Part shown: positions 14,701-55,321 of the stretch, one piece after another | How positions within the stretch are numbered: the stretch's first letter is position 1 | How the letters are laid out: each line of letters begins with the position of its first letter | Assembly: GCA_900767715.1 (NCBI GenBank) | Contig: CAAGAD010000005.1 | Location: 793,673-857,672 of the forward strand | From: Clostridia bacterium | GTDB taxonomy: Bacteria; Bacillota; Clostridia; Christensenellales; UBA1242 | Direction of reading: 5' to 3' | Length of the DNA stretch: 64,000 bases | Position numbers and translations under genes: made by a program | The notes under the pieces: generated by a model | What the model was told of the DNA's origin: nothing | Databases searched by the model: none | Seen by the model: the letters and a program-made list of their open reading frames with translations, nothing else

Positions 14701-15000
14701 AAAAATATAAAACATTTAAAAATAACTGCAAAAATATAAAAAAATAATAAAAAATGCAGTTATTTTTTCATTTTTTATAAAAAATTAATTAATCGGCGCC
14801 TAATATTGCATTAAATAATTATTTAAATTAATATTTTATTTTTTTTAATTTAATTCATTATTTATTTTATTTTAATTATTTTCACCTAATTAATTTTTTT
14901 GCGGAATAACGGAGTAAATTAAAATTTAGTTTAAACCACAAAATCGCGGGCAAATATATTTATATATATTTTTCAAAAATTTGCGAATAATTATTTGATA
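14701..15000. other. ultra-AT-rich island I (about 15% G+C by hand count)
   Basis: I counted 45 G/C in 300 nt. Contains the long-loop hairpin ATAACTGCA-N24-TGCAGTTAT plus a T-run (14722-14768), a likely terminator of the peptidase gene. Confidence 0.8.
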
Positions 15001-15031
15001 ATTATTTTTCTAGGTGGTACACTAAAAGTGT

Positions 15032-21000: not shown

Positions 21001-23002
21001 CGGTGGACTCGAAGTTTATACTGACAACACTTTGCTTGCACAAGACAATTTGTCATCACTTGCGGGCGGTCAATATTTGGCGACTATTTGTGCAATGGGC
21101 AATCGTCAATATATGACTTCACGCATAACGACAACAAGTTATTTGACCAAGTTTGACAGTCCAACAGGGCTCAAAACAGACGGAACAAAGATTGTCTGGG
21201 ACGCAGTGGAGAACGCAACCGGTTATAGAGTGGAACTCGGCAAATTGAACGACGCTGGCGAGTATGAAATTCAGCCTATTGAAACCACAACTGACAACAA
21301 CTTCACCTTGCCTAGCAGTTATGACGGACTTACTTTCAAGGTTCGTGTAATGGCGATTTCGCTTGAAGATAATGACAATTATCTCAACAGCGAATGGTGC
21401 GAAGAATGCATTGTGAATAAGGCAGAGCCAATCAGCAATTTGCGATTTGACGATGTCAACAAGCAATGGGTATGGACAGCGCCAGAGAGCGTGGATAAAT
21501 ACGTCATCAGTTATCGTCTAAACGGCAACAATACGGAAACCGAAACAATCAGCGGAGCGTACGCATACTTCAAGCCACAAAAACTCGGTGTTTACAGTGA
21601 GTTCGGCGTGCAAGTAGCACCTCCAACCACTCAGACGACAATGCTCCTATCCGACATTGTTTACTGGGAAAGCACGGACGACCAGGGCGTCGTGTATAAA
21701 CCAACCTACAATTTCAATATGTTCAATGCGGGCTACGGCACAGCAGAAAGTCCATACGAAATTGTGAGCGTGGAACAATTCATCAACATCAACTATTACA
21801 GCGACAAACATTTCATCTTGAAACGTAATATCGAATCAAGCAAAACTTATTTGAGCGCACTTGTTGGCGAGTTTACAGGCGTATTCAATGGAGATGGTAA
21901 GACTATCTCCAAGATAACCATTTCGACCGACAAATCGAACGCAGGTTTGTTCGGCATACTAACGGACGCAACGATTAAGAATTTGACTTTGGCGAACATT
22001 AGCGTAACCAACACATCATCTAGTGCGAACTATGTCGGCGTGTTGGCGGGCAGAATCGAGAAATCAAACATCGACGCGGTGACAATCAACGCGGGAGTTG
22101 TGGCTAGCGAAATCAAGGTTCAAAGATACGCTTATGTAGGCGGTTTGGCAGGTATGATTAGTGATAGCGTAATCAACAATATTGGTGTGAATATCACCGT
22201 CAACAATAACGTCAACAATGAAATCGCACTTGCTATTTACTCAGCAGGTTTGACCGCGATGTCAACCAACAGCACACTCACAAGCATTAGAGTGGGCTTG
22301 ATAGACCGTTCACAAGTCAACTCAACCTATCGTCTTGCAGGAATTGTCACAATGCTTGACGGCGGAACGTTGACCGATTCTTATGCAACTCTCGATAACG
22401 CGTCATCTAACTATGCAGACCATATCGGTGGTGTAGTTGAAACCAACAAGGGCACAATAGATAGTTGTTTCGCAACTGGCAAAGTGACCGTTCGCGGTAT
22501 TGCAAATGCTAACTATCAGCGTAATGGCTATGCAGGCGGTTTGGTCGGCACAAACGACTCTAACGGCACAATCAAGAACTGCTATGCTCAACTCAGCATT
22601 GTGGTAACGACCAACATTTCCGCAACATCTGGTGATTATCGAGTGGTAGTTGGCGGTCTGGTTGCAGTCAACGCGGGCTTAATCGATAACTCTTGGGTTG
22701 TCATCGCCAACGGCTATGCAACACTCACCAAGAGCGCAGAAAACACAGAATGCGTAATCAATGCTTTCGTTGGCAAAAACACTACAACCTATTCACAAGA
22801 AGGTTACACTTATGGCATCAAAAACTGCTATCAATATATTGACGGTGGCGCAAATTCGGGTGGCATCAGTCAAATGGATAGCGTGGCAAGTATGATGACA
22901 GAAGCGTTCAAGAAAACACTCAACACAAACGCTGGCAAAGACATCTACAATACAACAAACTCAGGTTTGCCAGAGTTCTTGTGGCAAAGCAAATTAATCT
23001 AA
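15032..23002 (+). CDS. giant surface lipoprotein/adhesin: lipobox, Big_2 domain, about 23 Fn3-like modules, C-terminal GLUG-type repeat region
   Basis: 2656-aa uninterrupted ORF. Lipobox MLAGC. Big_2-like VTAINF...GTAIVTAVS. Modules recur with P-x-N-L...G-x-L-x-W..V..A..Y; the Y-x-V-x-A-x-G part of the pattern is not met exactly in every module. C-terminus has SPYEI..EQF...FTGVFNGDGKTI..AGLFG...IKNLTL..VGGLAG (GLUG-motif pattern). Confidence 0.9.
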   Translation: MKSLMKKIRICILAVICMIPAFMLAGCTDDVPVTAINFREERIEMLVGDSYEPQVFCSPNSASNKRYGLKSNDTTIVTASGTRLTARSKGTAIVTAVSSSESKTASIVVIVYDKSVQLGVPSDIKYDGEALTFSASENAYNFDMRLNGQIIHLGNTNTYRNFDAGRVNTVEIMAVGNGRATISSAFSEEYKFFQIAQPTNLRVENGVLTFDAVENVSKYKITLKTDNNEDAEQIVDTNSLNLSNLIESGKEYNISVKALKDGYTNENLDKNVEIFASRESASIVVSKSNAPTNLRIDKNKLIFDNAVRQSTFELEIYSGSNQVLTTQFNEDFYDLSALDAGEYSIKVRQKTTGTNALFSDWSIPLVATKLVSPTVTIADGVVKISAVTDAVGYNVVVNGAVIDIRDASEFVLGSSFGVGAYTIGAQAYGDAQTIISNVSTTISATKLATPRNLALNNYVLSFDDVNDSASFKLTVSADLASEVKVNDIIDVEGNSYTFAPSYFAETTKTDTYRLQLQAYKTGNYLLSEKTEIYLVYKLATPQNVNLTDEKITIENEKINIVAVESTIGYKIEFYLADTNVLVDEKAFTPPQTYSDLPALDAGKYSVKIMATGNNANVLDSGIVQLDDIDVLAIPTTRAESNAIIWNAVEKATGYFITRDEVLDDKLITDLSYNIDLLEAGVYNFKIRAYGDGQKIISSKYSESPLVITKLSQPTDLDYQNGKLTWSAVEGATAYDVCYKNEETDNIDSFRVGTNSYDIDFASKLAGSYNYYVIALGNSNTVFDSKPSQDITIVKQAKATDLRLEGNTVKWNYDIDSTYELVVNGIVIDDLTNGAFDLIKDYLPIANFETAQEYTITLITKGESRKLVADGLVVKVDSDPTDSLVITKLAQTTDVSLSSGVLKWKINTSAVSYSLVVDGNVLIENVATNENNDAGYQTYDLNASLTAGEHTVAIIANGNGVNSFDSNASNYLASEIRLTKLPAVELKFNPSVYNASDNTYTMPFISWNAITGADHYALYIRFADGNDELTDSLGSITGTSYSLENIDKAGDVTFMVRAYGNSNDILYSDFAEMNIERLNAPKLVVANGKLSWEGVLNANSYLLFVQNPATSVYELVDEYAGIASYDFADRTAGAYDVRLIARNSLSQAEIKYADSVMAEMTVTKLNTPINFTVYDGKFKFDMVTGAEGYEITIGKYKHKIGADQTSDLELHSMLAERVEDAKLVATADGKITSSPTTIKVRMLSSPLGVKMVGGNIVWDKIQLPEGSSDAEYVVTIQKGTDVEKFDAGVNTSLAFPDLNWGTGEYYIYIQAKSGVYLDNGELVYQTISPYSTTYTVIIQDSVSIIQSVDGLLSWGSISTAVGYNVKIVDASGHENVVYVTDASFDMSDYVGFRTVSVMTKGNGENILDSDYSMPVHVITMPKVETIGLVDGKVTFDAVSIFNRAKLTFTSVDNSLLFYEFDCSPSLFDGANNAKTWANIVETFGTDYTNWNYTNVFNTINNSYILNKQINIPKGSYKLTIKLIGNTHAGSVDLAKGNIIVASSQTSVAVEMEKLGTPIVNVDDGIISWASSASYAELKTFNVYVQRVYKENNESKTEIHTFQTNVDWSYNNISSIDFKQNSFAYTDLNGQSRTITFGEAGEYKVYVSLQGDSTKYLTSNDSNIESVRILEDPEIKQIAGEMTWETIPYATEYRIDYTINESSKSLYVMGDRINFVTDFTDTKGITHTFPAGEYDLRIFAVGNGKDILNSKSGKRYTKRKLDIADAQFTLTEGLLEWNIVSNMAYYYVDIDNAYTSQYGGIIVNANEPNESLKFDNVNNVLTYEIPTNRVVGIHSVRIYAIGDNESLLSSSFSKVITAEKLVALSTPSLNGGRLEWLPNGNNRSGFDIKVSFIDDEGYTISFIKNINESTFILPDSVTLSNGIVYQLNGRDYTVWVKVRGTSYRETGGNYFNSDYSNELGFARYDDITNVHTTKGELTWTEVNNADNYYITIGGLEVYTDNTLLAQDNLSSLAGGQYLATICAMGNRQYMTSRITTTSYLTKFDSPTGLKTDGTKIVWDAVENATGYRVELGKLNDAGEYEIQPIETTTDNNFTLPSSYDGLTFKVRVMAISLEDNDNYLNSEWCEECIVNKAEPISNLRFDDVNKQWVWTAPESVDKYVISYRLNGNNTETETISGAYAYFKPQKLGVYSEFGVQVAPPTTQTTMLLSDIVYWESTDDQGVVYKPTYNFNMFNAGYGTAESPYEIVSVEQFININYYSDKHFILKRNIESSKTYLSALVGEFTGVFNGDGKTISKITISTDKSNAGLFGILTDATIKNLTLANISVTNTSSSANYVGVLAGRIEKSNIDAVTINAGVVASEIKVQRYAYVGGLAGMISDSVINNIGVNITVNNNVNNEIALAIYSAGLTAMSTNSTLTSIRVGLIDRSQVNSTYRLAGIVTMLDGGTLTDSYATLDNASSNYADHIGGVVETNKGTIDSCFATGKVTVRGIANANYQRNGYAGGLVGTNDSNGTIKNCYAQLSIVVTTNISATSGDYRVVVGGLVAVNAGLIDNSWVVIANGYATLTKSAENTECVINAFVGKNTTTYSQEGYTYGIKNCYQYIDGGANSGGISQMDSVASMMTEAFKKTLNTNAGKDIYNTTNSGLPEFLWQSKLI
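15368..21700 (+). repeat. array of about 23 diverged tandem 80-130-aa Fn3-like coding modules
   Basis: Module boundaries read from the protein (K-L-x-x-P-x-N-L junctions). The repeats are diverged at the DNA level, so no long identical nucleotide repeats were seen. Confidence 0.7.
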
Positions 23003-28012: not shown

Positions 28013-30832
28013 ATGGCTACGAGTAAAGAAAATGTGCAGAAGATTTTATCTGGCGAATTAAGTTTCAATTCGGTCAAATCTCCCGAAGAGTTGAAACTCT
28101 TATACAACGCTGGCTTGACATCGAAAGATTTGCGTAAATTGGTGATTGACGGCAAAATTGACGTGCAAAGTTTAAGCGCGAAGATGCTTTACGAATTGGT
28201 GATGCGCGATGTGCTCCGCGTACGCAATGCCGAATACACAGACAACACCGTGCCGAGAGCCGTTTCAGCCGAATGGAACAATGATTTTGAAGATGAAACC
28301 AACGAAGGCAGTGTCGAAGTTGTAAACGGTGTGCCAGTTGTGTATTTAGGCAGAATTAAGAATTATGGTTTGACTGACACTCAAAAGACCAAATTTGAAA
28401 AGGCCAACAGCAGAATGCCAAAGGTTGACCCGGCAGACATTGAAACAACCAAACCAATCGGTGAAGTAGTTGAAGATAGTGAAAGGCATACCGGTGGAGC
28501 AGTTGAACCACAAATTACTAAACTGCCTGACCCAACTGACGACGATGAGCCGGAAAACGAAAATGAAGAATCGGTAAAAAAATCTGCACCAAAGAAACCA
28601 GAGCCACCAACACCACGAGACTTCGCTATTCCAGATGGTGATGATGTTGACGAAGACGAGGACGAATTGAATGACCCAAGCATTGCTGGTGAGTCGGTCG
28701 AAATGGGTGAAACACCAGAAGAAGAAGTCGAGGATGTCCAACGTGAGTTTTACGGACTCCCTGAAAAAATTAGGAAACATAAATATGCATTTGAGCGTGA
28801 AGACCACGTCCGCGTGCCAATCTCACTCGCTCCAACACATATCAACCTAAAATACGTTCAAAATTTTGACATCGCAACACTTGAAGCGTCGTACCAACTT
28901 TTCCTAGGTGACGCCTATGGTTCTAGCCAAGCGAAAAAATGCATTGACGACTTAAAAGGCGCGTGCAAAGACTCCAAGAGCTTGAAAGTGAACAAAATCA
29001 AGGATTCGCCAGCAAAGTTCAAGACGGCAATGGAGCGTTTAAGTTGCCTATTCACCTATGACATTGATTTGAAGAAAATCAATTACAGCGTGCTCGACAA
29101 ATGGGCTCAAAAGAAATACGAAAGCGACCCTGAAAAATATAAAAAATTCTTGAAAACGATTGTTCTGCTCAACGACCCTAACAACAAGGAAATTACAGAA
29201 GCCAATCGCGACGAGATTAAGCAAGCCAAAATAAACCTTGCCAACTACATCGGCGAATACGAAGCCGATTTGCACAAAAATGATTTGGCTTATCAAAAGA
29301 AAATTAAAAGCATTCTTGATATCACAGCCGTAACCGGCGCTAGCATTGTGGGCGGTTTGGCAATGAGATATCTAATGGCGATACCTAACCATTTGGGTGA
29401 CCCTTGGGGACTGTTGATGCTCTGTTTGAGTGTGAACGGCGTACCAGTGGTCGGTATTATGGCAGGTCTTGCCTTGGCAAGTGGCGCAGTGCTAGTAATT
29501 GCGAAAATCATTAAAGCCCGTATTGACAATGTCAAGAAGTACAACAAGCAAACCAAGGCTTTGAAGAAGACTGCACAAGACCTTGCCGGTCATAAACAAG
29601 GTTTGTCCGCAATTAGAAAAAAATATGCTTTAATTTCACCAGATATGTCTGCTGACGAAGTCGCTGGCATTATGGCTGATAGCGAACCAAAGACCAAAGA
29701 AGAAAAAGCCCAAGCCAAGAAAGACAAAGAAATTCTTGACGTGGAAGACGCATTGCAACTTATTGCAGACGGTGATTTGAGCAAAAGATTGTCAAAGAAA
29801 AAATCTTTGGCTGGCAAACGTAATCTAACCAAGAGAGTGGAACAACAAGTCAAAGACGACATCATCTATGCGTTGACTCACGAAACACCTGAAACGAAAG
29901 CCATTTTAGACAATAGCGGACTGCAAGGTTTGTATGTGGCAAGACTGGCAGTTGCACTAGAACAAGCAAAGAAAGGTCAATTTGAAAGTTTGCGTGACAA
30001 ACAACTCGCTTACGATTTGGCACAACTGCGAAAGGCAAATTCAAAGAAGCCGATTGTCGCTGTGGAAGTAGTTAGTCCAGAGGGCAAAAAGATTGTGGAA
30101 ACCACCAAACTGGGAATGGACCGCAAACTTACGCCAGAAGAGTATGAGTCAATTCGTCAAGCCGCTCTTGAAGGCAATATCAGTGAAACCAACTTGCGCC
30201 TAGTATGTGAAGCGCAAAGAAAACTCGACGAAGAGTTTGTCATAAAAGCCTTGCAACAATCGCGTAAAGAACAAAAGAAAATTGCAACAGCCGATATGAA
30301 GGCAGAGTTGAAGGCGTTGGAGAAAAAGCAATTAACAGACGAGGACGGAAAGGTTTACACCAAGAAAGAAATTGCGAAATCTACCAAAGAAACTAAAAAA
30401 GCGTTGAAGAAAGCGGGCGACAAAGACGCGCTTGAATTAATGGAAAAAACGGCGAAAGAAAAGCAAGACCAATATCTTGCCGCTCGTCAAGCAATCATTG
30501 ACCACGCACAAGAAAATGCCGAAGCAGTCGGTCACAGCACAATCATCAAGAAACTACTCGACAACGGGGCAGAAAAAAGAGAAGCCGAAGAAACCGCTAA
30601 ATTCAAAGCAAAAAAGAAAGCCGAGCAAATTGAAATCAACAAAGAAACTTGGCATCAAATGGGACACGAGATTGCGACCGGTCTGAAAAAATTGGGCAAA
30701 TCTATTGGCAAGCCATTCCGCGCAATGTTTCCACCAAAAGATGCACAAACGGGAACAACGCTTGGTGGCAGTCCAACCAGCGCGAAAAACGCCACAAAGA
30801 CAACAAAAACAAAAGGCGGAATCTCTAGATAA
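28013..30832 (+). CDS. 939-aa highly charged protein with a central TM hairpin; function unknown
   Basis: AAGGAG RBS and consensus promoter. No signal peptide. Acidic D/E/P tract around aa 170-240, hydrophobic segments around aa 440-500, K/E-rich predicted coiled coil over the C-terminal 430 aa. Confidence 0.85.
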   Translation: MATSKENVQKILSGELSFNSVKSPEELKLLYNAGLTSKDLRKLVIDGKIDVQSLSAKMLYELVMRDVLRVRNAEYTDNTVPRAVSAEWNNDFEDETNEGSVEVVNGVPVVYLGRIKNYGLTDTQKTKFEKANSRMPKVDPADIETTKPIGEVVEDSERHTGGAVEPQITKLPDPTDDDEPENENEESVKKSAPKKPEPPTPRDFAIPDGDDVDEDEDELNDPSIAGESVEMGETPEEEVEDVQREFYGLPEKIRKHKYAFEREDHVRVPISLAPTHINLKYVQNFDIATLEASYQLFLGDAYGSSQAKKCIDDLKGACKDSKSLKVNKIKDSPAKFKTAMERLSCLFTYDIDLKKINYSVLDKWAQKKYESDPEKYKKFLKTIVLLNDPNNKEITEANRDEIKQAKINLANYIGEYEADLHKNDLAYQKKIKSILDITAVTGASIVGGLAMRYLMAIPNHLGDPWGLLMLCLSVNGVPVVGIMAGLALASGAVLVIAKIIKARIDNVKKYNKQTKALKKTAQDLAGHKQGLSAIRKKYALISPDMSADEVAGIMADSEPKTKEEKAQAKKDKEILDVEDALQLIADGDLSKRLSKKKSLAGKRNLTKRVEQQVKDDIIYALTHETPETKAILDNSGLQGLYVARLAVALEQAKKGQFESLRDKQLAYDLAQLRKANSKKPIVAVEVVSPEGKKIVETTKLGMDRKLTPEEYESIRQAALEGNISETNLRLVCEAQRKLDEEFVIKALQQSRKEQKKIATADMKAELKALEKKQLTDEDGKVYTKKEIAKSTKETKKALKKAGDKDALELMEKTAKEKQDQYLAARQAIIDHAQENAEAVGHSTIIKKLLDNGAEKREAEETAKFKAKKKAEQIEINKETWHQMGHEIATGLKKLGKSIGKPFRAMFPPKDAQTGTTLGGSPTSAKNATKTTKTKGGISR

Positions 30833-30851
30833 TTTCTTAAATTAAAATAAA

Positions 30852-30880
30852 AATACGGAGAAGTGTTTTCCGTATTTTTT
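30852..30880 (+). terminator. rho-independent terminator
   Basis: AATACGGA-N9-TCCGTATT followed by TTTT. A second palindrome at 30884-30916 (GACCTTGTAAA/TTTACAAAGTC) is flanked by A- and T-runs. Confidence 0.7.
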
Positions 30881-30884
30881 AATA

Positions 30885-31066
30885 AAAAAGACCTTGTAAA
30901 TTTACAAAGTCTTTTTATATTAATTTATTTATTATTAAATAATTAAATATTTAATGTTTTTTAATAAATTTATTTAAATAAAATATATTTTTTAATTAAT
31001 TATAATTTTTCGTCATTTATTTAATTATTTAATTTTTAATAATTGCAGATAATTAAAATTAATTAA
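30885..31066. other. ultra-AT-rich island II (about 6% G+C over 30901-31080 by hand count)
   Basis: I counted 11 G/C in 180 nt. Lies between the convergent 28013 gene and hisS. Confidence 0.8.
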
Positions 31067-32314
31067 TTATTTTTCAAAAATTACGATTTCTTTTTTGTTA
31101 ATGTCAACGAAACCAACATAACCATTTTGCATCAGTCTATCAAGTTGAGCGCGGACATTTTTTTGCTTTAAGAATATTGCAACGTCATACTCTTTTTGCA
31201 ATTCAGTCTTGTATTCGAAAACGTCCTTGCTGGTATTGTCAAGTGAGTACAACAGAGCCAATTTCTTTTCAGCAGAGACAAGCAGATTGTGTTCAGTCAC
31301 GAGCATAATTGTTGGTTCGAGCCCGAGTCCAAAGCCAACCATTGGCACAGGTTCGCCGATGAATTTTTGGCTCATATTATCATATCTGCCACCGCCACCG
31401 ATTGCACTGTTAAAGCCATACGCTGTGGCGTAGAACTCAAACACTGTGCCGGTGTAATAGCCTTGTCCGCGTACGATTGTGATATCGAAACGTGCGGTCA
31501 TTGTGTCGGGGGCAATTTGATTGATTGTATCCACAATTAATTGTGTGTTGTGGATTAGTTCAGCGTCGATTTTGCCATTCAATGCAATAACGCCGTCAGT
31601 TTTTGTGGCAATGATTATGTCGAGCAGTTTTTCCACTTTTGTGATGTTATAACCTTTTTCAATTAGTTCGTTTGTGACGCCCTCGCGTGCAATTTTATCA
31701 AACTTGTCAAGGCTGATTGCGATATCTACTTGGTCACTTTTTTCAAAACCAACATAGTCGATAATTGCGTTCAAGATTCTGCGGTCACTGATACGCGCTT
31801 CCACATTTCTTAGACCTACATTGTAATAGGCTTGCAAAGCGGTCGAAATGATGTCGATGTCAGCATTGACACTGCCGTCGCCGATGATGTCCGCGTCGCA
31901 TTGTGTGAATTGACGCAAGCGACCTTTTTGTGGACGTTCAGCACGGAATGATTCGTCGATTTGAATTGATTTAAAAGGGAAAGTTAATTTCTCGCGGTTG
32001 TTGCACCAAAAGCGCACGAGTGGAACGGTTTGGTCGTATTTCAAGCCTTCCGCTGTGATGTCTTTTTCGGTGAGATTCGTGCGAGTTAGGTCAAGTTCAG
32101 CACCACGCTTGATTGTCTTGAACATTAGTTTGGTGTTTTCCCCCTCATCGCCGTTGGTAAGCCATTCAAGGCTTTCCAAAATTGGCGTTTTGATAAGGTT
32201 GAAGCCGCTGTTCGCATATGTGCGTTTGATGATGGAAATCACTTTATCGCGCACACACATTTCGTTAGGCAAGTATTCTTTGCAACCCCTAACTGGATTT
32301 GTGCTGATTTTCAT
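31067..32314 (-). CDS. hisS: histidine--tRNA ligase
   Basis: Class-II motifs: N-terminal RG.KEYLP pattern, FRAERPQKGRLRQFTQCD, GGGGRYDNM. C-terminal anticodon-binding-like domain. 415 aa. GGAGGA RBS lies in the 8-nt gap after glyQS. Confidence 0.85.
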   Translation of the reverse strand: MKISTNPVRGCKEYLPNEMCVRDKVISIIKRTYANSGFNLIKTPILESLEWLTNGDEGENTKLMFKTIKRGAELDLTRTNLTEKDITAEGLKYDQTVPLVRFWCNNREKLTFPFKSIQIDESFRAERPQKGRLRQFTQCDADIIGDGSVNADIDIISTALQAYYNVGLRNVEARISDRRILNAIIDYVGFEKSDQVDIAISLDKFDKIAREGVTNELIEKGYNITKVEKLLDIIIATKTDGVIALNGKIDAELIHNTQLIVDTINQIAPDTMTARFDITIVRGQGYYTGTVFEFYATAYGFNSAIGGGGRYDNMSQKFIGEPVPMVGFGLGLEPTIMLVTEHNLLVSAEKKLALLYSLDNTSKDVFEYKTELQKEYDVAIFLKQKNVRAQLDRLMQNGYVGFVDINKKEIVIFEK

Positions 32315-33962: not shown

Positions 33963-35792
33963 TTATTTTTCCACATTGTCGGGGCTGTTGAAACTATCGT
34001 AAACGTTTTTCGCCACCGTTTTGCTAATACCTTTTGTGCTTTCAAGGTCTGTTAGAGACGCTTGCTTGATGTTTTGCAAGGTCTTGTATTTGTCCAAAAG
34101 AATGCGTCTTGTGGTAGGGCCGACGCCCTTGATTCCCACAAGCCCGCCTTTGTACTCGCTCTTGTCGCGGAGCAAGCGGTTAAAGGTTATGGCGGTGCGG
34201 TGCGCCTCGTCACGCGCCAGTTGTAATACTCGCAAAGCGTAACTGCCGTGTGGCAATAGAATAGAGCGTTCGCTCTTTGGGGTGAACACTTCTTCTAGTC
34301 GTTTGGCAAGTGAAATGATTTCACCATCATATCCAAATTCCTTTTTCACTTCTAGGGCGGCGGAGAGTTGACCTTTACCACCATCGATTACGATTAGGTC
34401 AGGTTTCGAACTGAAACTGATGTCCTCGCTGTCAAACTCGCTAAATCTGCGCCTCAAGGTTTCGCGCATACTTTCAAAGTCGTCAATGAAATCTACCGAA
34501 TTGATTTTGAATTTGCGGTAATGCTTCGGCGCTTTTTTGCCACCGATTAACACACTCATACTGCTCACCGTGCTTGTGCCAAAGGTGTTGGAAATATCGT
34601 AACACTCGATTCGGTTTGGCACTCGGTCAAGGTTTAGTTCACGTTTGAGAATCTCGAGCGCGCCGGTGGACTGGTCGTATTCTTTCTTTTCAATCGATAT
34701 ATTTTTTTCCAAATGCAGTTTAGAATTTTCCACACACATATTTAAGAGCGTTTTTTTCACGCCTTTTTGCGCAAATTCGTATTTAAAATGCTTATTATAT
34801 TTTTTTTGCACCATTTCGCATAAAATTGTATCATCAATTTCGCACGAAAGTATAACCGCGTCACAAGTGTATGCGTTAATTTGATAGTATTGTGACAAAA
34901 ATTCGGCTAAAAATTCGCCCTTTGTGAGAGAATAGTCTTTCACAGTGAAACTGTTGACACCAATCATTCGCCCACCGCGCACCACCATAACGCAAAGAGC
35001 GGTTTGTTCGCCGTTGGAATAAATGTCGAAAATATCGTAATTGACAATGGTCGGTAATTGGGTGACAACTTTTTCTTTTAAGCGAGAAAGCATTTTCAGT
35101 GAGTCGCGAAGTTTGATTGCTGTTTCATAGTTTTCGCTCTCGCTGGCGATTGCCATTTTCTCACGCAAAATGTTTTCAATCTTTTCAGTGTCGCCGTGCA
35201 AAAACTTGACCGCGTCGTTCACAATCTGGTTGTAGTCGTCCTTGCTTATTTTTTTGGCGCAAGGAGCGGAGCATAGGTGCATATCGTAGAAAATGCAAGG
35301 GCGAATCGGTTTGCTTGTAGGCGTGATGTGTAGGTTGCATTTGACGAGCGGGTAGGCGTAGTTGATAGTTTCCAAAATATCTTTGGCGGAAATGCCTGCA
35401 AAGTATGGGCCAAAGAAGATGTCCTTATTGTTCATCTTGCGCGTTAGGTCAAATTTTGGAAAGGGTGCGCGCTTGTTGAGTCGAATGTATTGGAAATTTT
35501 TGTTGTCTTTTAAAAGAATGTTATAGAATGGCTGATATTTTTTTATGAGAGTGTTTTCGAGCGCAAGTGCGTCATATTCGCTATTAACCACGAAAAAGTC
35601 AAAGTCACAAATGTGGTCAACCATATGTTGAACCTTGGGCAACTTTTCCGTGTTGAAGAAATATTGACTTACACGATTTTTCAGTTTCTTTGCCTTGCCT
35701 ACATAAATGACAGTGCCTTGGTTGTCTTTCATAATATAGACACCGGGTTTTAATGGCAAGGTTTTAATTTTTTGCTCGATAGTGGAATTCAT
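33963..35792 (-). CDS. uvrC: excinuclease ABC subunit C
   Basis: GIY-YIG N-terminus (PGVYIMKD...VIYVGKAKKLKNRVSQYF), UVR domain, C-terminal (HhH)2. 609 aa. Confidence 0.95.
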   Translation of the reverse strand: MNSTIEQKIKTLPLKPGVYIMKDNQGTVIYVGKAKKLKNRVSQYFFNTEKLPKVQHMVDHICDFDFFVVNSEYDALALENTLIKKYQPFYNILLKDNKNFQYIRLNKRAPFPKFDLTRKMNNKDIFFGPYFAGISAKDILETINYAYPLVKCNLHITPTSKPIRPCIFYDMHLCSAPCAKKISKDDYNQIVNDAVKFLHGDTEKIENILREKMAIASESENYETAIKLRDSLKMLSRLKEKVVTQLPTIVNYDIFDIYSNGEQTALCVMVVRGGRMIGVNSFTVKDYSLTKGEFLAEFLSQYYQINAYTCDAVILSCEIDDTILCEMVQKKYNKHFKYEFAQKGVKKTLLNMCVENSKLHLEKNISIEKKEYDQSTGALEILKRELNLDRVPNRIECYDISNTFGTSTVSSMSVLIGGKKAPKHYRKFKINSVDFIDDFESMRETLRRRFSEFDSEDISFSSKPDLIVIDGGKGQLSAALEVKKEFGYDGEIISLAKRLEEVFTPKSERSILLPHGSYALRVLQLARDEAHRTAITFNRLLRDKSEYKGGLVGIKGVGPTTRRILLDKYKTLQNIKQASLTDLESTKGISKTVAKNVYDSFNSPDNVEK

Positions 35793-36040
35793 AATTAAAT
35801 TATATCATAAAATAAATATTTGTAAAATTAAAAATAAAATATTAAAAAAATAATTAATATTTAAAATGTACTAAAATAATTAATAGATTAATAAAATATT
35901 GTATGAAAATATTAAAAATTATTAAAAAATCGTTATTTTCTGCAATTTTACTAATTTTTTTGCTAATTTCTCCATTTTTTATTTTTAAAAATTTAAATTA
36001 TTATCTTGATGTAAAAGCGGAAAATAAAAAGATAAATATG
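35793..36040. other. ultra-AT-rich island III (5-13% G+C per 60-nt block by hand count), includes the first ~46 codons of ORF 35903
   Basis: Hand counts of 3, 6 and 8 G/C in three successive 60-nt blocks. Composition returns to normal near 36040. Confidence 0.8.
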
Positions 36041-36832
36041 CTCACCATTTGGCATTGCGAAACTCACGAGGGTGGCAGGTCGAGTAGGCTTGCGTTTTTG
36101 AAGAGTGTGGCGCGCGAGTTTGAAAAGGCTAACAGCGGAATCGTTGTGTATGTGCGACTTGTTGAACAAGTTGAAATGGAAGAGTTGATAAGCGCGGGTG
36201 AGTTGCCCGATTTGTTGTCGTTCGGCTCGGGCGTCAAGCCAAGTCTGGCTAGCGCGCTGTGTGAGATAAAAGGCGACTATTCGGTGAGCAAAAATTATTT
36301 AAATTCCGCACGTGTCAGCAATCGTGTTTTGGCTCTGCCATATATGTTGTCAACCTATGTGGTGATTACCAAAACCAAAATCGAAAATGCAAAAGAATAC
36401 GCGACCAAAAACAACATCAATTTTTTAGCGGGCAACATAGACGCGGTGCGATACGATAAAGATGATTTGCCAATCGACAGCGCCGAGCACACCACCTACA
36501 CCGCCTATCTAGATTTCAAAAACACCAAAGCGCCAGCCTTGGTCGGCACAATGCGCGACGTGGCGCGCTTGACCAACGCGAATTATACGCAAGATAGTTA
36601 TTACTATTTACCAACGGGATATTCGAATATGGCGCAGTACATAGGAGTGTGCAAGCCGAGTAAGACGGGCAAAATGTTTATTCGAACGCTGTTGAGCGAC
36701 GCGATACAAAAGAAGGTGGCAGACGTTGGGCTATTTTCAGTCAAAGAGAATGTCACACTTTACTCAGTGAGTCCATATTTGGAGTTGGAGCAAAATGTTA
36801 AGAACATCAAATTGGAGAGATTATGGAAATAG
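35903..36832 (+). CDS. hypothetical membrane-anchored/secreted protein; start uncertain
   Basis: 309-aa ORF. The N-terminal TM-like segment (KKSLFSAILLIFLLISPFFIF) is encoded inside the AT island and has no RBS. An alternative start at M46 (MLTIWHCE) would remove it. The 3' end overlaps murB by 10 nt. Confidence 0.6.
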   Translation: MKILKIIKKSLFSAILLIFLLISPFFIFKNLNYYLDVKAENKKINMLTIWHCETHEGGRSSRLAFLKSVAREFEKANSGIVVYVRLVEQVEMEELISAGELPDLLSFGSGVKPSLASALCEIKGDYSVSKNYLNSARVSNRVLALPYMLSTYVVITKTKIENAKEYATKNNINFLAGNIDAVRYDKDDLPIDSAEHTTYTAYLDFKNTKAPALVGTMRDVARLTNANYTQDSYYYLPTGYSNMAQYIGVCKPSKTGKMFIRTLLSDAIQKKVADVGLFSVKENVTLYSVSPYLELEQNVKNIKLERLWK

Positions 36833-37809
36833 TGCAAGACAGACAAGTACTCAAAAACGAAAAGATGAGTGCGCACACCAGTTTTAGAATCGGTGGCAGT
36901 GCAAATCGACTGGTGCAAGCAACTACGCAAGTTGCTGTATTGAAAACCTTGTGTGAGTGTGCTGGCAAGAATGAAAAAATCTATTTTATCGGTGGTGGTT
37001 CAAATACGCTTTTTTCTTCACGAAAAATTGACGCCACCATTTTGCAATACACAAATAACGACATCTACATCGAGAACGATACGCTCGTGTGTTCGGCGGG
37101 TGTAATGGTGAGCGAACTTTTGAAGTTTTGCCTTGCGCATTCGATTGCCGGTTTGGAATTTATGGCGGGTATACCTGGTACTATTGGAGGCGCGGTTAAA
37201 GGTAATGCGGGCGGAGTCGATACGGCGATTGGAGATTTCGTCACCAAAATTTCTGGCTTTGAAATAGAATGCGATAATCAAAATAATATAAATAAAAATA
37301 GCGAAATAATATTAAATAAATTAAAAAATAAAATAACATTAATAAATAATCAAAAAATATTAAAAAATGCGAAAAATAACGTTAAAATACGCAAAAAATA
37401 TATAAAAATATGCGAAAATTTCTTTAATTACAGAAAAAGCAATATAAAAAACAATTTTTTTATTTTAAAAATATATTTAAAAATTAATTATGGAAATAAA
37501 TTAATTATTGAAAATAAAATTAAAGAATTTTTAAGCAATAAAATTTTGCGTCAACCTATGAACAAGCGGAGTGCGGGAAGTGTGTTTTTGCGTCAAGGAG
37601 ATTTCATACCCGCTCGTGCGATTGACGCGCTGGGGCTGAAAGGTGAACGCGTTGGTGGAGTAATGGTGAGCAATCTTCACGCGGGGTTTATTGTGAATGA
37701 AGGTGGTGCTAGCAGTGGTGACGTCTTGAAGTTGATAGACAAAATCCGTCGCCGAGTTCGTAAAGTTTACGGCGTGGATTTAATCTGTGAAATACGCTAC
37801 TTCGACTAG
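36823..37809 (+). CDS. murB: UDP-N-acetylenolpyruvoylglucosamine reductase with an AT-biased, expanded central segment
   Basis: Motifs present: HTSFRIGG, GGGSNTL, AGIPGTIGGAV, F-x-YR-x-S, RQP...SAGSVF, C-terminal HAGFIVN. 328 aa, which I recall as somewhat longer than typical MurB. The middle ~100 aa are N/K/I-rich. Confidence 0.85.
   Translation: MEIVQDRQVLKNEKMSAHTSFRIGGSANRLVQATTQVAVLKTLCECAGKNEKIYFIGGGSNTLFSSRKIDATILQYTNNDIYIENDTLVCSAGVMVSELLKFCLAHSIAGLEFMAGIPGTIGGAVKGNAGGVDTAIGDFVTKISGFEIECDNQNNINKNSEIILNKLKNKITLINNQKILKNAKNNVKIRKKYIKICENFFNYRKSNIKNNFFILKIYLKINYGNKLIIENKIKEFLSNKILRQPMNKRSAGSVFLRQGDFIPARAIDALGLKGERVGGVMVSNLHAGFIVNEGGASSGDVLKLIDKIRRRVRKVYGVDLICEIRYFD
37261..37555 (+). other. 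ultra-AT-rich island IV, in frame inside murB (about 14% G+C by hand count)
   Basis: I counted 41 G/C in 300 nt, against roughly 45-50% in the flanking murB sequence. The reading frame is maintained. Confidence 0.85.
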
Positions 37810-37853
37810 CGTTTGGGGTTGACTTATTGACGTAGTTTTGCTACAATACAAAT

Positions 37854-38777
37854 ATGAAATATTTGGAGTCTGCTAGGAATCAAATATTGGATTCATTCAA
37901 GGAACATAACTGTTGCTTGTATGCCTTTTTGTCGGCGCTAATAGGTAGCACCACCACACAGTTTGACGGGCGCATTTTGGAATTGCAATTCGTGGACAAC
38001 ACGCAATATTTGTTCATCAAGCGCAGTTTAAAATCGCTATACGATGACCGCGTTGAGTGTGTTGACGGCGATTTCGCGGGCAAGAAGTTTGTGCTGATTG
38101 ACGGACAGGCTGTGAGCGAACTTATGGATGACCTTGGACTAGAACTCAATAATGGTCAAATCGCGGTCAACAACCGCGTCATTGAAAATGACTGCTGTAC
38201 GCAATCGTTCGCGAAAGGGTGCTTTGTGGGTGCGGGAAGATTCTACACCAATCAAGACATCAATGCCAAATCCACGGGCTACAACCTTGAAATCGGTTTC
38301 AACAGTGAAGCCATTGCCAAGACGGCTAGCCAGTGCTTCAACAAACTCGGCGTCAAGATGAAGTGGGGCAATCGTTTGGGTAGGTCAATTTTGTATCTTA
38401 GAGATAGCGAGCAAATATGCGACTTGCTCACGGCGGTTGGCGCGTTCAAAGCGTCGCTTGAATTCCAGAACGATTTGTCGCTTAGAACGATGAAAAACAA
38501 TCTCAATAGACAGAACAATTGTTATGACGCCAACCAAACCAAGACCATAAACGCTAGTTTTGAGCACATCAAGGCAATCGAAAATCTGCAAAAGTCGGGC
38601 AAGTTTGAGTTTTTGGACGCAGACCTTAAACTCATCGCGCAAATTCGCCTTGATAATCCGGACGCCTCGCTCAGCGAGTTGTGCACAATTTTTCCACGCA
38701 AAATTACCCGCGCAGGTATGAAATATAAACTCGATAGGCTGATTGCCATTAGTCAAAAGAAAAAGGACAAGAAATGA
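37854..38777 (+). CDS. whiA: DNA-binding sporulation/cell-division regulator WhiA
   Basis: N-terminal CC..AFLSALIG pattern, degenerate LAGLIDADG-like middle, C-terminal HTH (RAGMKYKLDRL). 307 aa. ATGA overlap with dnaE. Confidence 0.85.
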   Translation: MKYLESARNQILDSFKEHNCCLYAFLSALIGSTTTQFDGRILELQFVDNTQYLFIKRSLKSLYDDRVECVDGDFAGKKFVLIDGQAVSELMDDLGLELNNGQIAVNNRVIENDCCTQSFAKGCFVGAGRFYTNQDINAKSTGYNLEIGFNSEAIAKTASQCFNKLGVKMKWGNRLGRSILYLRDSEQICDLLTAVGAFKASLEFQNDLSLRTMKNNLNRQNNCYDANQTKTINASFEHIKAIENLQKSGKFEFLDADLKLIAQIRLDNPDASLSELCTIFPRKITRAGMKYKLDRLIAISQKKKDKK

Positions 38778-52641: not shown

Positions 52642-53526
52642 ATGAAACGAGTTTTTATCAGCATTATGGTGTCATTGTTGTTCGTTTTCGGGCTTACGAT
52701 AGCGGTCGGCAACATATTTATGCCTAATGCTATTGTGGCGCAAGCGTATTCTTACGACACCAAAACCATTCAGCAGAAATTGAAGAGTTGGGGCTATTAC
52801 AAAGGCTCGGTTGATGGCGTATATGGTGCGAAGACTCGCGAGGCGGTCAAAGCCTTTCAAAGAAAAAACGGGTTGACGGCGGACGGAGTAGTAGGGTCTG
52901 CCACAGCCAAGGCTATGGGCATCAGTTCGACCAGCACGACCACGACTTCGACCAGCACAAAGGGTGATGTGGTGAGCGTCAAAACTTATCAACAAAAACT
53001 CAAAAGTTGGGGATATTACACGGGTGCGGTTGACGGCGTGAAGGGCGCAAAAACTGTTTCAGCGGTCAAGGCTTTCCAGCGCAAGAACGGACTCACAGCG
53101 GACGGAATTGTGGGCAATGCCACTGCCAAAGCAATGGGAATATCTGTGAGAGCGGGCACAAACAGTAGTTATACAAATAATGATACATATCTATTAGCCA
53201 AAGCGGTTTACAGTGAAGCGCGTGGAGAACCATACGTCGGTCAAGTGGCGATTGCGGCGGTGATATTGAACCGCGTCAAGAGTAGCGCTTTTCCAAACAC
53301 TGTGGCGGGCGTAATCTATCAGCCTTGGGCATTTACCGCAGTGCACGACGGTCAGTTTGAACTAGAACCAAACGCCACGGCATACCAAGCGGCACGCGAC
53401 GCACTCAATGGTTGGGACCCAACTTATGGCAGTATTTATTATTACAATCCACGAACAGCAACAAACACGTGGATTCGCAGTCGCAAGGTGACCACCACCA
53501 TCGGCAAGCACGTGTTCGCGGTGTAG
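52642..53526 (+). CDS. sleB: spore cortex-lytic enzyme SleB (2 PG_binding_1 repeats plus a hydrolase_2 domain)
   Basis: Two copies of QQKLKSWGYY.G.VDG..GAKT..AVKAFQRKNGLTADG.VG, then LLAKAVYSEARGEPYVGQVAIAAVILNRV...PWAFTAV. Confidence 0.85.
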   Translation: MKRVFISIMVSLLFVFGLTIAVGNIFMPNAIVAQAYSYDTKTIQQKLKSWGYYKGSVDGVYGAKTREAVKAFQRKNGLTADGVVGSATAKAMGISSTSTTTTSTSTKGDVVSVKTYQQKLKSWGYYTGAVDGVKGAKTVSAVKAFQRKNGLTADGIVGNATAKAMGISVRAGTNSSYTNNDTYLLAKAVYSEARGEPYVGQVAIAAVILNRVKSSAFPNTVAGVIYQPWAFTAVHDGQFELEPNATAYQAARDALNGWDPTYGSIYYYNPRTATNTWIRSRKVTTTIGKHVFAV

Positions 53527-53534
53527 GAGGAGTT

Positions 53535-54908
53535 ATGGAAAAGAAGAAAGATAAAAAATCAACTAATCAAAACAAAATGCCTGCCAATGTAAAAAGTTTT
53601 CTCTACATTGGTTGCGTGGTGGTAGCCATACTCTTGTTGGCGTTTGGAATAAGTCTGTATCAAAATTCATTACGTATCAACAACTACCAAAACGTTTTGG
53701 AGGGCGTGTATAGGTCGAGTTATTTCAATATGGTGGATAAAGTCAATAACGTGTCAATCGACACCGACAAACTCACCAACGAAAAAGACAAGGATATGCA
53801 AATGCAGACCTTGCGTTCAATCAGCAAGGATTGTGACTCAATCGTGGCGTCGTTGTCACTTTTGTCAATCAATAGTGCCAATGTCATCGACCTAACCAAG
53901 TTTTTCAACCAACTTGGCGGTTTGGCGGACGCATACTGTGACAAACTTTACAATGGTGAGAATTTGACCGATAGCGACATCAAACAGATTGTCAAGGTCA
54001 ACGAAAGTTTGCAAAAACTCAAAAACAAAATCAATCCACATAATGAAGGAATGATTATGGGCGAGTACGATTTCAGTTCAAATAGCATTATGAAGGACGG
54101 CAAAAGTCCGTTTGCCAACTCGCTAGGCAATTTGACGGCGGACGAGATTGAATACCCGGCAATGATTTTCGACGGGCCATTCTCCACCGCATTGGAAACC
54201 AAAAAAGTCAAAGGTCTTGCGGGCGAGATGATTGATAAAGCCACCGCACAAAAAATTGTGCAAGACAAAGTGTTCGCAGGCAAAAAAGTGACAATCAAGT
54301 CAACGAGCGAAACCAACGCTGACCTAGATAGTTGGGACTTTAACGTAATCGTTGACGATCAAAAATATTTCGCCCAGATAAGCAAGCAAGGGGGAATGCT
54401 TCTCACTTTGAGTGGCGAAGCGATTTCTAGCGAACCAATGATTGACGAAAACGAAGCAAAGCAAGTGGCAGAAAAATATGCCACCGCGTTGGGCTTCGAG
54501 AATATGAAGACCGTTTGGGTTGATACATATCAAAACACCAGTTACATCAACCTTGCACCTGTTGTAGATGATTGCATTCTTTATCCAGACCTTGTTAAAG
54601 TCAAGGTGGATTTGACCAGCAAGCGCGTTATTGGTTGGGACGCACAAAATTACGCATTCAACCACACTAGCCGTTCAACCACACCGGCACTCGATGAAGC
54701 AGAAGTGCTAGCCAACCTTGAAGGCGAAAATGTAATGGCTTCAAGCCTTGCAATCATACCAATGGACGACGGCATTGAAATGCTCACTTATGAGTTCGTT
54801 AGCATTCGTGACGACGGCACATACTACATTTACTATTCAGCCGACAATGGTGCGATGATAAAAATTATGAAAGAAATAACCACAGATAAAGTTCATAAAT
54901 TAATTTAA
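53535..54908 (+). CDS. ypeB: germination protein YpeB
   Basis: GGAGGAG RBS before the ATG at 53535; the track ORF starts upstream inside sleB. N-terminal TM, PepSY-like C-terminal repeats. Canonical sleB-ypeB adjacency. Confidence 0.75.
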   Translation: MEKKKDKKSTNQNKMPANVKSFLYIGCVVVAILLLAFGISLYQNSLRINNYQNVLEGVYRSSYFNMVDKVNNVSIDTDKLTNEKDKDMQMQTLRSISKDCDSIVASLSLLSINSANVIDLTKFFNQLGGLADAYCDKLYNGENLTDSDIKQIVKVNESLQKLKNKINPHNEGMIMGEYDFSSNSIMKDGKSPFANSLGNLTADEIEYPAMIFDGPFSTALETKKVKGLAGEMIDKATAQKIVQDKVFAGKKVTIKSTSETNADLDSWDFNVIVDDQKYFAQISKQGGMLLTLSGEAISSEPMIDENEAKQVAEKYATALGFENMKTVWVDTYQNTSYINLAPVVDDCILYPDLVKVKVDLTSKRVIGWDAQNYAFNHTSRSTTPALDEAEVLANLEGENVMASSLAIIPMDDGIEMLTYEFVSIRDDGTYYIYYSADNGAMIKIMKEITTDKVHKLI

Positions 54909-55260
54909 TTAAATATTATTTAAAATAAATAATTAATTAAAAATAAATAAAAAAATATAGACACGTATTTTTAACTACAAAAATGCGTGTTTTTTAATAA
55001 AAAATGCAATAAAAAATAAATATTTCAAAAAAATATTAAATTTTAAATAATAAAAACAAATATTTAATTTAATTAAAATAAATATTAAAAAATAAATTTT
55101 AATTCAAAATAAATAAAATAAAATGCTTGTTTAGGCAAGGTTGTGAAAAAGTTGAATAAAAACTAGCAATAATTTGTCAAATAAAATTCGGCTAAAAAAA
55201 TAAAATTTTTAGATATTTTTAATTGCCTTATTAATGAAAAATATTGTATTATATAATATA
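54909..55260. other. ultra-AT-rich island V (about 12% G+C by hand count)
   Basis: I counted 42 G/C in 360 nt (54901-55260). Directly upstream of the second giant gene. Confidence 0.8.
54961..54996 (+). terminator. rho-independent terminator of ypeB
   Basis: ACACGTATTTTT-N6-AAAAATGCGTGT (one mismatch) plus a T-run. Confidence 0.6.
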
Positions 55261-55321
55261 TATATTTAATAAATATTTGAGCGAAAACGAGAGAAAATAT
55301 TTTTGTAGATGAAAGGTTAAT

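Follow-up and report, generated by a model that had tools for sequence, protein, structure and literature searches.

The murB gene and its AT-rich tract

The window analyzed here is a 64,000-nucleotide (nt) stretch of contig CAAGAD010000005.1 from a Clostridia bacterium (Christensenellales, UBA1242), which its glycyl-tRNA synthetase (GlyRS) puts among deep, uncultured gut Clostridia, and this work concerns an extremely AT-rich tract lying in frame inside its murB gene, which codes for UDP-N-acetylenolpyruvoylglucosamine reductase. We delimited and identified the gene by open reading frame (ORF) calling, Pfam, matches to solved structures, AlphaFold and Foldseek; its first 10 nt are shared with the end of the upstream ORF309. 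The features on which the following sections rely are listed here.

36823–37809, + strand: murB ORF, 328 amino acids (aa)
37274–37547, + strand: AT tract, 274 nt, G+C 10.6% (A 0.58, T 0.31), with sharp edges and A/T runs phased at about 10.3 base pairs (bp)
37261–37401, + strand: lineage-specific hairpin-loop insertion rich in N, K and I, residues 147–193, 47 aa against a typical 8, defined by alignment and by the predicted local distance difference test score (pLDDT)
37402–37557, + strand: MurB core written in A/T-rich codons, residues 194–245, with strand 187–195, the YR loop, strand 212–220 and helix 226–243
37423–37440, + strand: F201-x-Y203-R204-x-S206 loop, R204 being the AGA at 37432–37434
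37330–37415, + strand: degenerate tandem duplication, 2 × 43 nt (sub-periods 11 and 22 nt), not in register with the codons
35740–36056, no strand: AT island between the divergent uvrC and ORF309-murB, with A-tracts phased at 10.3 bp; its portion 35793–35902 (110 nt) is at 5% G+C

An earlier, sequence-only reading of this DNA had described an in-frame murB segment of about 14% G+C between flanks of ordinary composition, and both parts of this description are borne out. In the interval 37261–37555 the G+C fraction falls to 0.132 (A 0.57, T 0.30), the whole window averaging 0.424, and there is no in-frame stop; the narrower limits of the tract, 37274–37547, were set by a maximal AT-segment search. 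Only about 0.1–1% of 295-nt windows are as low as this interval, and all the others are intergenic; among 37 window ORFs, murB is the only one whose interior dips below 26% G+C in 90-nt windows, with a minimum of 6%. G+C is low at every codon position of the tract (0.16/0.12/0.12) compared with the upstream (0.48/0.41/0.44) and downstream (0.60/0.40/0.48) parts of the gene, and codon usage just beyond the 3′ edge turns to AAC AAG CGG inside about 5 codons. The tract has 0 stops in the murB frame and 5–16 in each of the other five frames. Since shuffled tracts contained a mean of 11.9 stops, and all 100,000 of them had at least one, the murB frame is actively kept open.

The encoded protein scores 50 bits for PF01565 (FAD_binding_4, cut-off 26.4) and 89 bits for PF02873 (MurB_C, cut-off 27), and HMMER matches it to the solved structures 3tx1, 4pyt and 1hsk, in alignments that break off around residue 140 and restart around residues 194–200. 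The AlphaFold model, built from 108 sequences, has a pLDDT of 88 and a predicted template modelling score (pTM) of 0.85; Foldseek superposes it on the same three structures with template modelling scores (TM-scores) of 0.79–0.87 and an E-value of 5e-28, so that the predicted structure is the three-domain MurB fold. Across the 108 MurBs, F201, Y203 and R204 are invariant or nearly so and S206 is nearly invariant, and the columns of R204, S253 (in AGS-x-F) and E323 (the C-terminal Glu) are invariant. Following the MurB literature, we take R204, S253 and E323 to be the catalytic residues. Judging by this conservation, the open frame and the low variation within the species, the protein is probably an active MurB reductase. 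It shares both Pfam domains and the fold with type II MurBs (S. aureus 1HSK, Listeria 3TX1, 4PYT), as well as the conserved R204, S253 and E323 columns, and differs from them by about 39 extra residues in one hairpin loop. An intron, intein or other excised element was considered and rejected, as parts of the enzyme itself, namely the invariant F-x-YR-x-S loop, a strand of the core and a helix, are encoded by the tract; the sole match in an Rfam scan of the window is a tRNA elsewhere, with no intron match in the tract.

A loop insertion joined to a recoded core

Alignment of the window MurB with 120 homologues, from which all loop and per-region identity figures are taken, divides the AT-rich segment into an inserted part (residues 147–193) and a part homologous to other MurBs (residues 194–245). 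The loop, which sits in the flavin adenine dinucleotide (FAD)-binding domain, has 47 residues where 115 MurBs from outside the clade typically have 8, a net gain of about 39 aa; this lineage-specific insertion forms about 40% of the tract and is without counterpart in the other MurBs aligned. AlphaFold gives residues 152–184 a pLDDT below 50, which predicts disorder, and residues 187–245 a pLDDT above 90. The sequence-only reading had noted that the segment keeps the F-x-YR-x-S motif, is 25–30 aa longer than in typical MurBs and is not junk inserted into a loop. The motif is there, in the (nearly) invariant columns given above; the extra length is real, at the larger value of about 39 aa net and all of it in one loop; as to the last point, the segment does hold a translated, homologous MurB core, while about 40% of it is a loop insertion with a predicted disordered center.

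The core part, residues 194–245, shows a mean identity of 34% to MurBs outside the clade, equal to that of the N-domain. The fraction of F, Y, M, I, N and K (FYMINK) in these approximately 52 residues is 0.69, against 0.41 in other MurBs.

The insertion changes fast between lineages, with indels, and bears tandem-repeat traces with periods of 9/18/27 and 11/22/43 nt. In the 43-nt duplication at 37330–37415, the motif (…AAAATGCGA…) is read in different frames in the two copies, with the ORF still open. A recurring GCGAAA(A) motif was discarded as a candidate signal, its copies being accounted for by this duplication and not position-conserved in relatives. The hairpin loop is an insertion hot spot: unrelated inserts of 20–25 aa are found in P0083, P0106, P0251, P0254, P0249 and P0089, some of the inserts of other lineages being acidic and some ordinary in composition, and N/K-rich inserts are found in two more distant loci (L117, 4001–5083; L118, 4001–5047). 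Because unrelated insertions occur there in other MurBs, the loop is permissive.

The degenerate repeats of the insertion and the unrelated insertions taken up by the same loop are in favor of a purely mutational origin. Under this explanation, the main rival of our favored reading, which we find possible though doubtful, a low-complexity insertion would have arisen by duplication or slippage in a tolerant loop and fallen under a self-sustaining local AT mutational process, without function; misalignment-mediated correction, together with easier melting and increased cytosine deamination, would keep it AT-pure, and AT-richness would creep into adjacent codons wherever F, Y, I, N, K and L are tolerated. 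A known parallel is that of the Asn/Lys-rich insertions of the Plasmodium type (PMC7534687, PMC5389722), which, like the murB insertion, are N/K-rich, predicted to be disordered, in frame, placed in a surface loop of a housekeeping enzyme, written in AT-rich codons and marked by traces of tandem repeats. However, the Plasmodium genome is 80% A+T, whereas the host genome here is 42% G+C with a G+C of 0.50 at third codon positions (GC3), and the tract is isolated in one of 37 ORFs; it is also without length polymorphism, and its AT-richness reaches the folded catalytic core. Of the marks of Plasmodium-type slippage, we thus found the low-complexity disordered loop, and neither frequent length polymorphism nor a genome-wide AT bias of coding DNA.

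AT-richness is imposed on the DNA

To obtain a codon expectation, we combined the amino acids of the tract with the codon usage of the other 38 ORFs (GC3 0.50) in 20,000 simulations. GC-ending codons number 12 out of 99 in the tract, against 44.9 ± 4.9 expected; the lowest simulated value was 26, and 0 of 20,000 simulations fell as low as the tract. With genome codons, the same amino acids would give 26% G+C instead of the 13.5% observed. The four amino acids below illustrate the bias.

Lys: AAA 19, AAG 0 in the tract; AAA 64% in the genome
Asn: AAT 19, AAC 2 in the tract; AAT 44% in the genome
Ile: ATA 12, ATT 6, ATC 0 in the tract; ATA 13% and ATC 40% in the genome
Leu: TTA 8 of 9 in the tract; TTA 8% in the genome

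The chosen codons include both common (AAA, GAA, CAA) and rare ones (ATA, TTA, GGA); their shared property is therefore A/T content, not rarity, and a rare-codon cluster is ruled out, as AAA, GAA and CAA are the commonest codons of the genome. AT-richness is imposed on the DNA, and not only on the protein. Over five lineages, the ATA:ATT:ATC ratio is about 45:30:6, resembling that of unselected AT-rich DNA, a point in favor of the mutational explanation.

This result bears heavily on the idea that selection acted on the protein alone, favoring an N/K/I-rich surface arm (for example, a basic one binding a membrane or a partner) with AT-richness as a passive outcome. Such an arm would fit an insertion kept in all clade members with conserved length, rich in lysine and with periodic Lys spacing in three lineages. 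Yet the synonymous-codon test largely refutes it (12 GC-ending codons against 45, 13.5% G+C against 26%), the insertion is predicted to be disordered with no significant amphipathic moment, and the recoding of the folded core is left unexplained; we hold this explanation to be very unlikely.

The same codons could also constitute a signal at the level of RNA or translation, an unstructured, A-rich mRNA with ATA and TTA codons that would slow or tune MurB translation through a pause around the insertion in the FAD-binding domain, a link to tRNA supply or RNase entry. In line with this, folding gives next to no structure for the RNA (−19 kcal/mol over the 274 nt, the first ~96 nt being unpaired), A outnumbers T on the sense strand (0.57 to 0.30), and ATA and TTA supply 12 of 18 Ile and 8 of 9 Leu codons, against 13% and 8% in the genome. 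However, A/T-ending codons are picked whether they are rare or, as AAA, GAA and CAA, major codons of the genome; the fold z-score of 0.15 makes the structure no different from what composition predicts, and the tract has no Rfam match. We consider an RNA-level signal unlikely.

The tract is inherited vertically within a clade

Proteins at 96, 89, 73, 61 and 45–50% identity to the window MurB all carry the segment. The murB loci of these relatives are syntenic (uvrC, ORF309, murB, whiA, dnaE), and all show a dip of G+C to 5–15% in murB; in L006, L001, L004 and L005 the tracts measure 274, 272, 290 and 251 nt at 9–13% G+C. P0142, whose locus is syntenic as well, came from an exhaustive search of cluster representatives and is 44% identical. 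The order of relatedness is identical in the N-flank, the insertion, the homologous part and the C-flank. The murB tract is thus specific to this clade and has been passed down vertically.

Between the window and L001, synonymous differences affect 39–47% of same-residue codons in the flanks and 17–20% in the tract. Across comparisons, the synonymous codon differences of the flanks reach 39–61%, near saturation, and the tract stays at 9–13% G+C. The deficit in the tract concerns the synonymous changes that involve G or C, ATT and ATA still being swapped at 4 of 9 Ile codons. The constraint therefore bears on composition and not on specific sites, and it has lasted long enough to erase any foreign signature.

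These comparisons go against the first of two origins proposed by the sequence-only reading, a mosaic gene in which an internal murB segment was replaced by recombination with a very low-GC donor. Sharp compositional boundaries and a segment holding homologous MurB sequence are what such a replacement would leave. Still, relatives down to 44% identity (89, 73, 61, 45–50 and 44%) all carry the tract in synteny, with a relatedness order like that of the flanks, which is the very outcome that the reading had named as fatal to the mosaic; nor has the tract drifted toward the genome composition, despite the near-saturated synonymous divergence of the flanks. No outside MurB is unusually close to residues 194–245 (best 48%, mean 34%), an identity not above that of the flanks and equal to that of the N-domain, so that the comparison of best matches between segment and flanks, carried out as per-region identity over the 120 homologues, reveals no outlier donor. 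Neither the 7,116 matches nor the best 150 of the exhaustive representative search contain a MurB of a low-GC lineage that is clearly nearer to residues 194–245 than to the flanks. Moreover, no other MurB has an equivalent of about 40% of the tract, and relatives whose genomes are lower in G+C have a less AT-rich tract. We regard the mosaic as highly improbable. The second proposed origin, a local AT-driving force acting on coding DNA as in the intergenic islands, agrees with our results, synonymous choice being far from that of the genome and composition matching that of the islands.

A search with the protein segment of the tract alone returned no match, clade members included, and is uninformative, as we suspect the compositional bias correction of HMMER of suppressing this low-complexity query; a scan of GTDB genomes with the clade alignment gave, among the matches listed, only MurBs of at most 36% identity and no clade members.

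The species-level cluster draws its 88 members from many samples. Its 12 distinct full-length variants are all 328 aa long, as are P0002 and P0003, and the window protein, P0002 and P0003 are equal in length despite 47% divergence in the insertion. This absence of length polymorphism in the species cluster is a point against the mutational explanation. The density of variable sites within the species is 11% in the insertion, 10% in the AT-locked core, 14% in the N-domain and 8% in the C-domain; the insertion is not hypervariable. In ordinary MurB pairs, residues 194–245 outpace the flanks in divergence, the ratio of the two having a median of 1.39 over 329 pairs (5th percentile 1.08, minimum 0.83). 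Comparing the window with P0003 gives 0.28 (Fisher p = 0.002), and other subclade pairs give 0.81 and 0.76. This slower divergence of the core is consistent with two overlapping constraints; a strong mutational regime could also yield it.

The possibility of an artefact, either a chimeric join or collapsed low-complexity sequence, has to be weighed. Short-read assemblies are indeed split or garbled in the tract: of the only two close contigs retrieved by a scan of Joint Genome Institute (JGI) metagenomes, L089 stops at MurB residue 203 and L090 begins at residue 230, and the cluster members P0128, P0141, P0123, P0126 and P0140 are garbled or truncated calls, such as 83-aa products starting at M246. 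However, the intact 328-aa ORF is found in 12 or more protein variants, from many independent samples and assemblers and on contigs of up to 158 kb; five further lineages carry the tract, the frame is open, and the product has a predicted MurB fold. The chance of an artefact is negligible, and short-read assemblies tend to break in the tract and not to misjoin.

A/T runs are phased with the DNA helix

A-tracts in helical phase classically mark DNA that is intrinsically bent. In the window tract, the periodogram of AAA/TTT run positions peaks at 10.3 bp, with no 3-bp peak, and across six clade lineages the peak lies at 10.3–10.6 bp. As a test, we counted the codon shuffles that reached the observed power in the 10–11.2 bp band; in class-preserving shuffles, codons were permuted only inside hydrophobic or polar classes. 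The counts are given below.

Window: codon shuffles 0/500; class-preserving 0/1000
L006: codon shuffles 0/500; class-preserving 0/1000
L001: codon shuffles 0/500; class-preserving 0/1000
L004: codon shuffles 3/500; class-preserving 1/1000
L005: codon shuffles 5/500; class-preserving 2/1000
L087 (outgroup): codon shuffles 1/500

Phasing is stable for run lengths k = 2, 3 and 4. As a control, 151 windows of 273 nt of ordinary coding DNA from other ORFs gave 3.3% at p ≤ 0.01 and 6% at p ≤ 0.05, which is chance level. The A/T runs of the tract are thus spaced at the 10–11 bp helical period beyond chance, and the DNA may be intrinsically curved.

An amphipathic helix or a coiled coil could in principle produce a period of about 10.5 nt. 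Hydrophobic periodicity of the protein at 3.33–3.73 residues is not significant in any lineage (p 0.24–0.99), and the insertion has no significant helical hydrophobic moment, so this source was rejected. Helical A-tract phasing in six lineages is not predicted by the mutational explanation.

Clusters of phased A-tracts have been described in prokaryotic genomes, coding DNA included (PMC3940949, PMC3431218), and curvature periodicity with such clusters is attributed to Tolstorukov 2005 as cited in PMC4761138. The published clusters resemble the murB tract in their 10–11 bp run spacing in both coding and noncoding DNA; they differ from it in being about 100 bp long, modest and genome-wide, whereas the murB tract spans 274 bp at 10% G+C and is kept at one site of a gene across a clade.

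The tract resembles the intergenic AT islands

Of the four largest intergenic AT islands of the window, three have helically phased A-tracts and all three lie upstream of genes: 14605–15063, 35740–36056 and 54828–55346, whose power was reached by 0/300, 0/300 and 6/300 shuffles, respectively. The fourth, in the convergent gap at 30819–31136, shows no phasing. In this gap, between a 939-aa ORF and hisS, the stretch 30833–31066 is at 10% G+C, likewise without A-tract phasing. Other long noncoding gaps have 31–38% G+C, and intergenic composition looks bimodal; because these gaps exist, 10% G+C is not the default for noncoding DNA.

The minimum G+C of the tract is near that of the lowest intergenic islands in most lineages, the figure for L087 being inflated by an island just upstream of its murB. 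This proximity to the noncoding islands of the same lineages would be expected from a mutational process; gaps at 31–38% G+C argue against it, 10% not being a general neutral state. As for an RNA-level signal, it leaves unexplained that the 10.3–10.6 bp phasing is common to the tract and to islands that are not translated.

Several genes border on such islands. The last 70–95 nt of the genes at 13216–14700, 53412–54908 and 31067–32314 run into AT islands, and their terminal codons take on the island composition. Two giant ORFs, at 15032–23002 (2656 aa) and 55322–63358 (2678 aa), have only weak matches to Ig-like domains, and each is preceded by a gap of 330–410 nt at 13–16% G+C with helically phased A-tracts; we ruled out that they are paralogs, as they share no detectable similarity.

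Neighboring genes

ORF309 (35903–36832) has an AT-rich, signal-peptide-like N-terminus and no Pfam match, its ortholog in L005 giving a faint match to SBP_bac_11; it is conserved in L118 (29% identity) and absent from L087. Downstream of murB, whiA (37854–38777) is preceded at 37819–37856 by TTGACT, a 17-nt spacer and TG-TACAAT; its ATG lies 7 nt past the −10 element, without a Shine-Dalgarno sequence, which suggests a leaderless whiA-dnaE transcript. Promoter-like matches number 10 against 3.9 ± 2.0 expected, seven of them in the tract and an eighth across its 5′ edge. Those in the tract are expected from composition and not conserved, and an internal promoter feeding whiA was dismissed, the 44-nt gap before that gene already holding a near-consensus promoter. 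Elsewhere in the window, a 515-aa ORF (1800–3347) matches the HopA1 effector family (E = 6e-7), a surprise in a genome of gut Clostridia.

The insertion is older than its extreme composition

The outgroup L087 (locus at 37.5% G+C) has the loop insertion, the first half of which is of ordinary composition (43–47% G+C). In L118 (locus at 31.5% G+C), synteny is kept, ORF307 is homologous to ORF309 (E = 4e-39) and UvrC is 53% identical; an N/K-rich insertion occupies the loop, with a weaker dip at 22% G+C. In L117 (locus at 32% G+C), only the uvrC-murB adjacency is kept, and a tract of 394 nt at 14% G+C shows no significant phasing. The insertion is therefore older than its extreme composition, and the AT tract was sharpened and extended into the core in the clade that goes from L005 to the window. 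A relic of an AT-rich ancestor was discarded as an explanation: the tract is more AT-rich than in relatives with genomes of 31–32% G+C, and its synonymous sites have turned over.

In L005, sequence of ordinary composition precedes the tract, whose 3′ end comes about 25 codons before that of the window subclade, so that its edges shift relative to the protein between lineages while its length stays within 251–290 nt. Edges that differ in this way (moderate in L087, shifted in L005, running through strand and helix in the window subclade) resemble a spread, as the mutational explanation would have it; the switch of codon usage from AAT/AAA to AAC AAG within about 5 codons speaks against it.

A DNA-structural element inside an essential gene?

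Our favored, if tentative, reading is that the tract is a curved DNA element of the AT-island type embedded in murB. Such an island, intrinsically curved and readily melted, would be maintained within murB, most likely as a candidate binding or bridging site of a nucleoid-associated protein, or as another structure-dependent element, with an effect on the ORF309-murB operon; its partner might be the AT island at 35740–36056, 1.2–1.5 kb upstream. Purifying selection on MurB would hold the frame and the key residues, so that two overlapping codes would be superimposed on the same DNA. In favor of this reading are the persistent AT pressure on synonymous sites, the helical phasing shared with three of the islands, a length conserved although the edges shift, a minimum G+C near that of the lowest islands, the absence of length polymorphism within the species, the slow divergence of the AT-locked core, the noncoding gaps at 31–38% G+C and the number of promoter-like matches; from these observations, binding, curvature and a regulatory effect are inferred. 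It is possible, and we would not put it more strongly, that a selected DNA-structure element, either a nucleoid-protein bridge or a supercoiling-sensitive regulator, has been kept clade-wide and has caused some 50 codons of the folded catalytic core to be rewritten with A and T only, DNA shape dictating synonymous and amino-acid choice alike.

A number of observations weigh against a DNA-structural element. The lineages tested for phasing are not independent, the window, L006 and L001 having most of the tract in common; a period of about 12 nt, or four codons, dominates the insertion half in L004 and L005; given the periodic Lys spacing of three lineages, a 3.5-residue period and a 10.5-nt period are inseparable; and part of the phasing in the window may stem from the 11/22/43-nt tandem duplication. 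In the outgroup L087, only 175 nt around the YRKS motif reach 22% G+C, and L118 has no phasing (499/500 shuffles reach its power). The tract lies far downstream of the operon promoter, silencing an essential gene has no obvious advantage, and slower protein evolution is also expected from a purely mutational AT regime.

Mechanistically, the tract comes closest to the downstream regulatory element (DRE) of proU, part of which lies in the proV ORF and which H-NS bridges to an element farther upstream (PMC10656529); here too, AT-rich coding DNA with a role at the DNA level goes with a curved, AT-rich upstream element. The murB tract is like the proU DRE in being AT-rich relative to the genome, in lying in coding DNA and in having a phased upstream island (35740–36056), binding being known only for proU. 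The two differ in scale and position, the proU DRE being 66% A+T, extending from −40 to +177 and overlapping the promoter, whereas the murB tract is about 89% A+T over 274 bp, some 1.3 kb downstream. No H-NS-like protein is known for this lineage, and we found no nucleoid-associated protein among about 25 of the window's 39 ORFs scanned against Pfam; the likeness to proU is a resemblance only. A sharp local drop of G+C, as in the murB tract, is also the mark of xenogeneic-silencer targets (CgpS/Lsr2, PMC7002338; H-NS, PMC1550270). Those targets are horizontally acquired, whereas murB is native, essential and vertically inherited.

N/K-rich low-complexity insertions, clusters of phased A-tracts and intragenic AT-rich regulatory DNA are each already known. 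To our knowledge, which includes the literature searched, their combination is undescribed: an isolated, phased tract of about 10% G+C, maintained at synonymous sites across a clade, in an essential gene of a 42% G+C genome and reaching into a folded catalytic core.

Composition inside genes is normally fairly uniform, and sharp AT dips are usually taken as foreign DNA or as assembly errors. Tracts of this kind fragment short-read assemblies, split gene calls and can pass for horizontal transfer. If the mutational explanation is true, a local AT-biased process can rewrite a conserved protein sequence. If the tract acts at the DNA level, this clade would offer a natural system in which a code for DNA structure or nucleoid proteins overrides codon and amino-acid choice in the folded core of an enzyme, and, should it be a DNA-structure element, murB would be a clear example from nature of a structural and a protein code that overlap.

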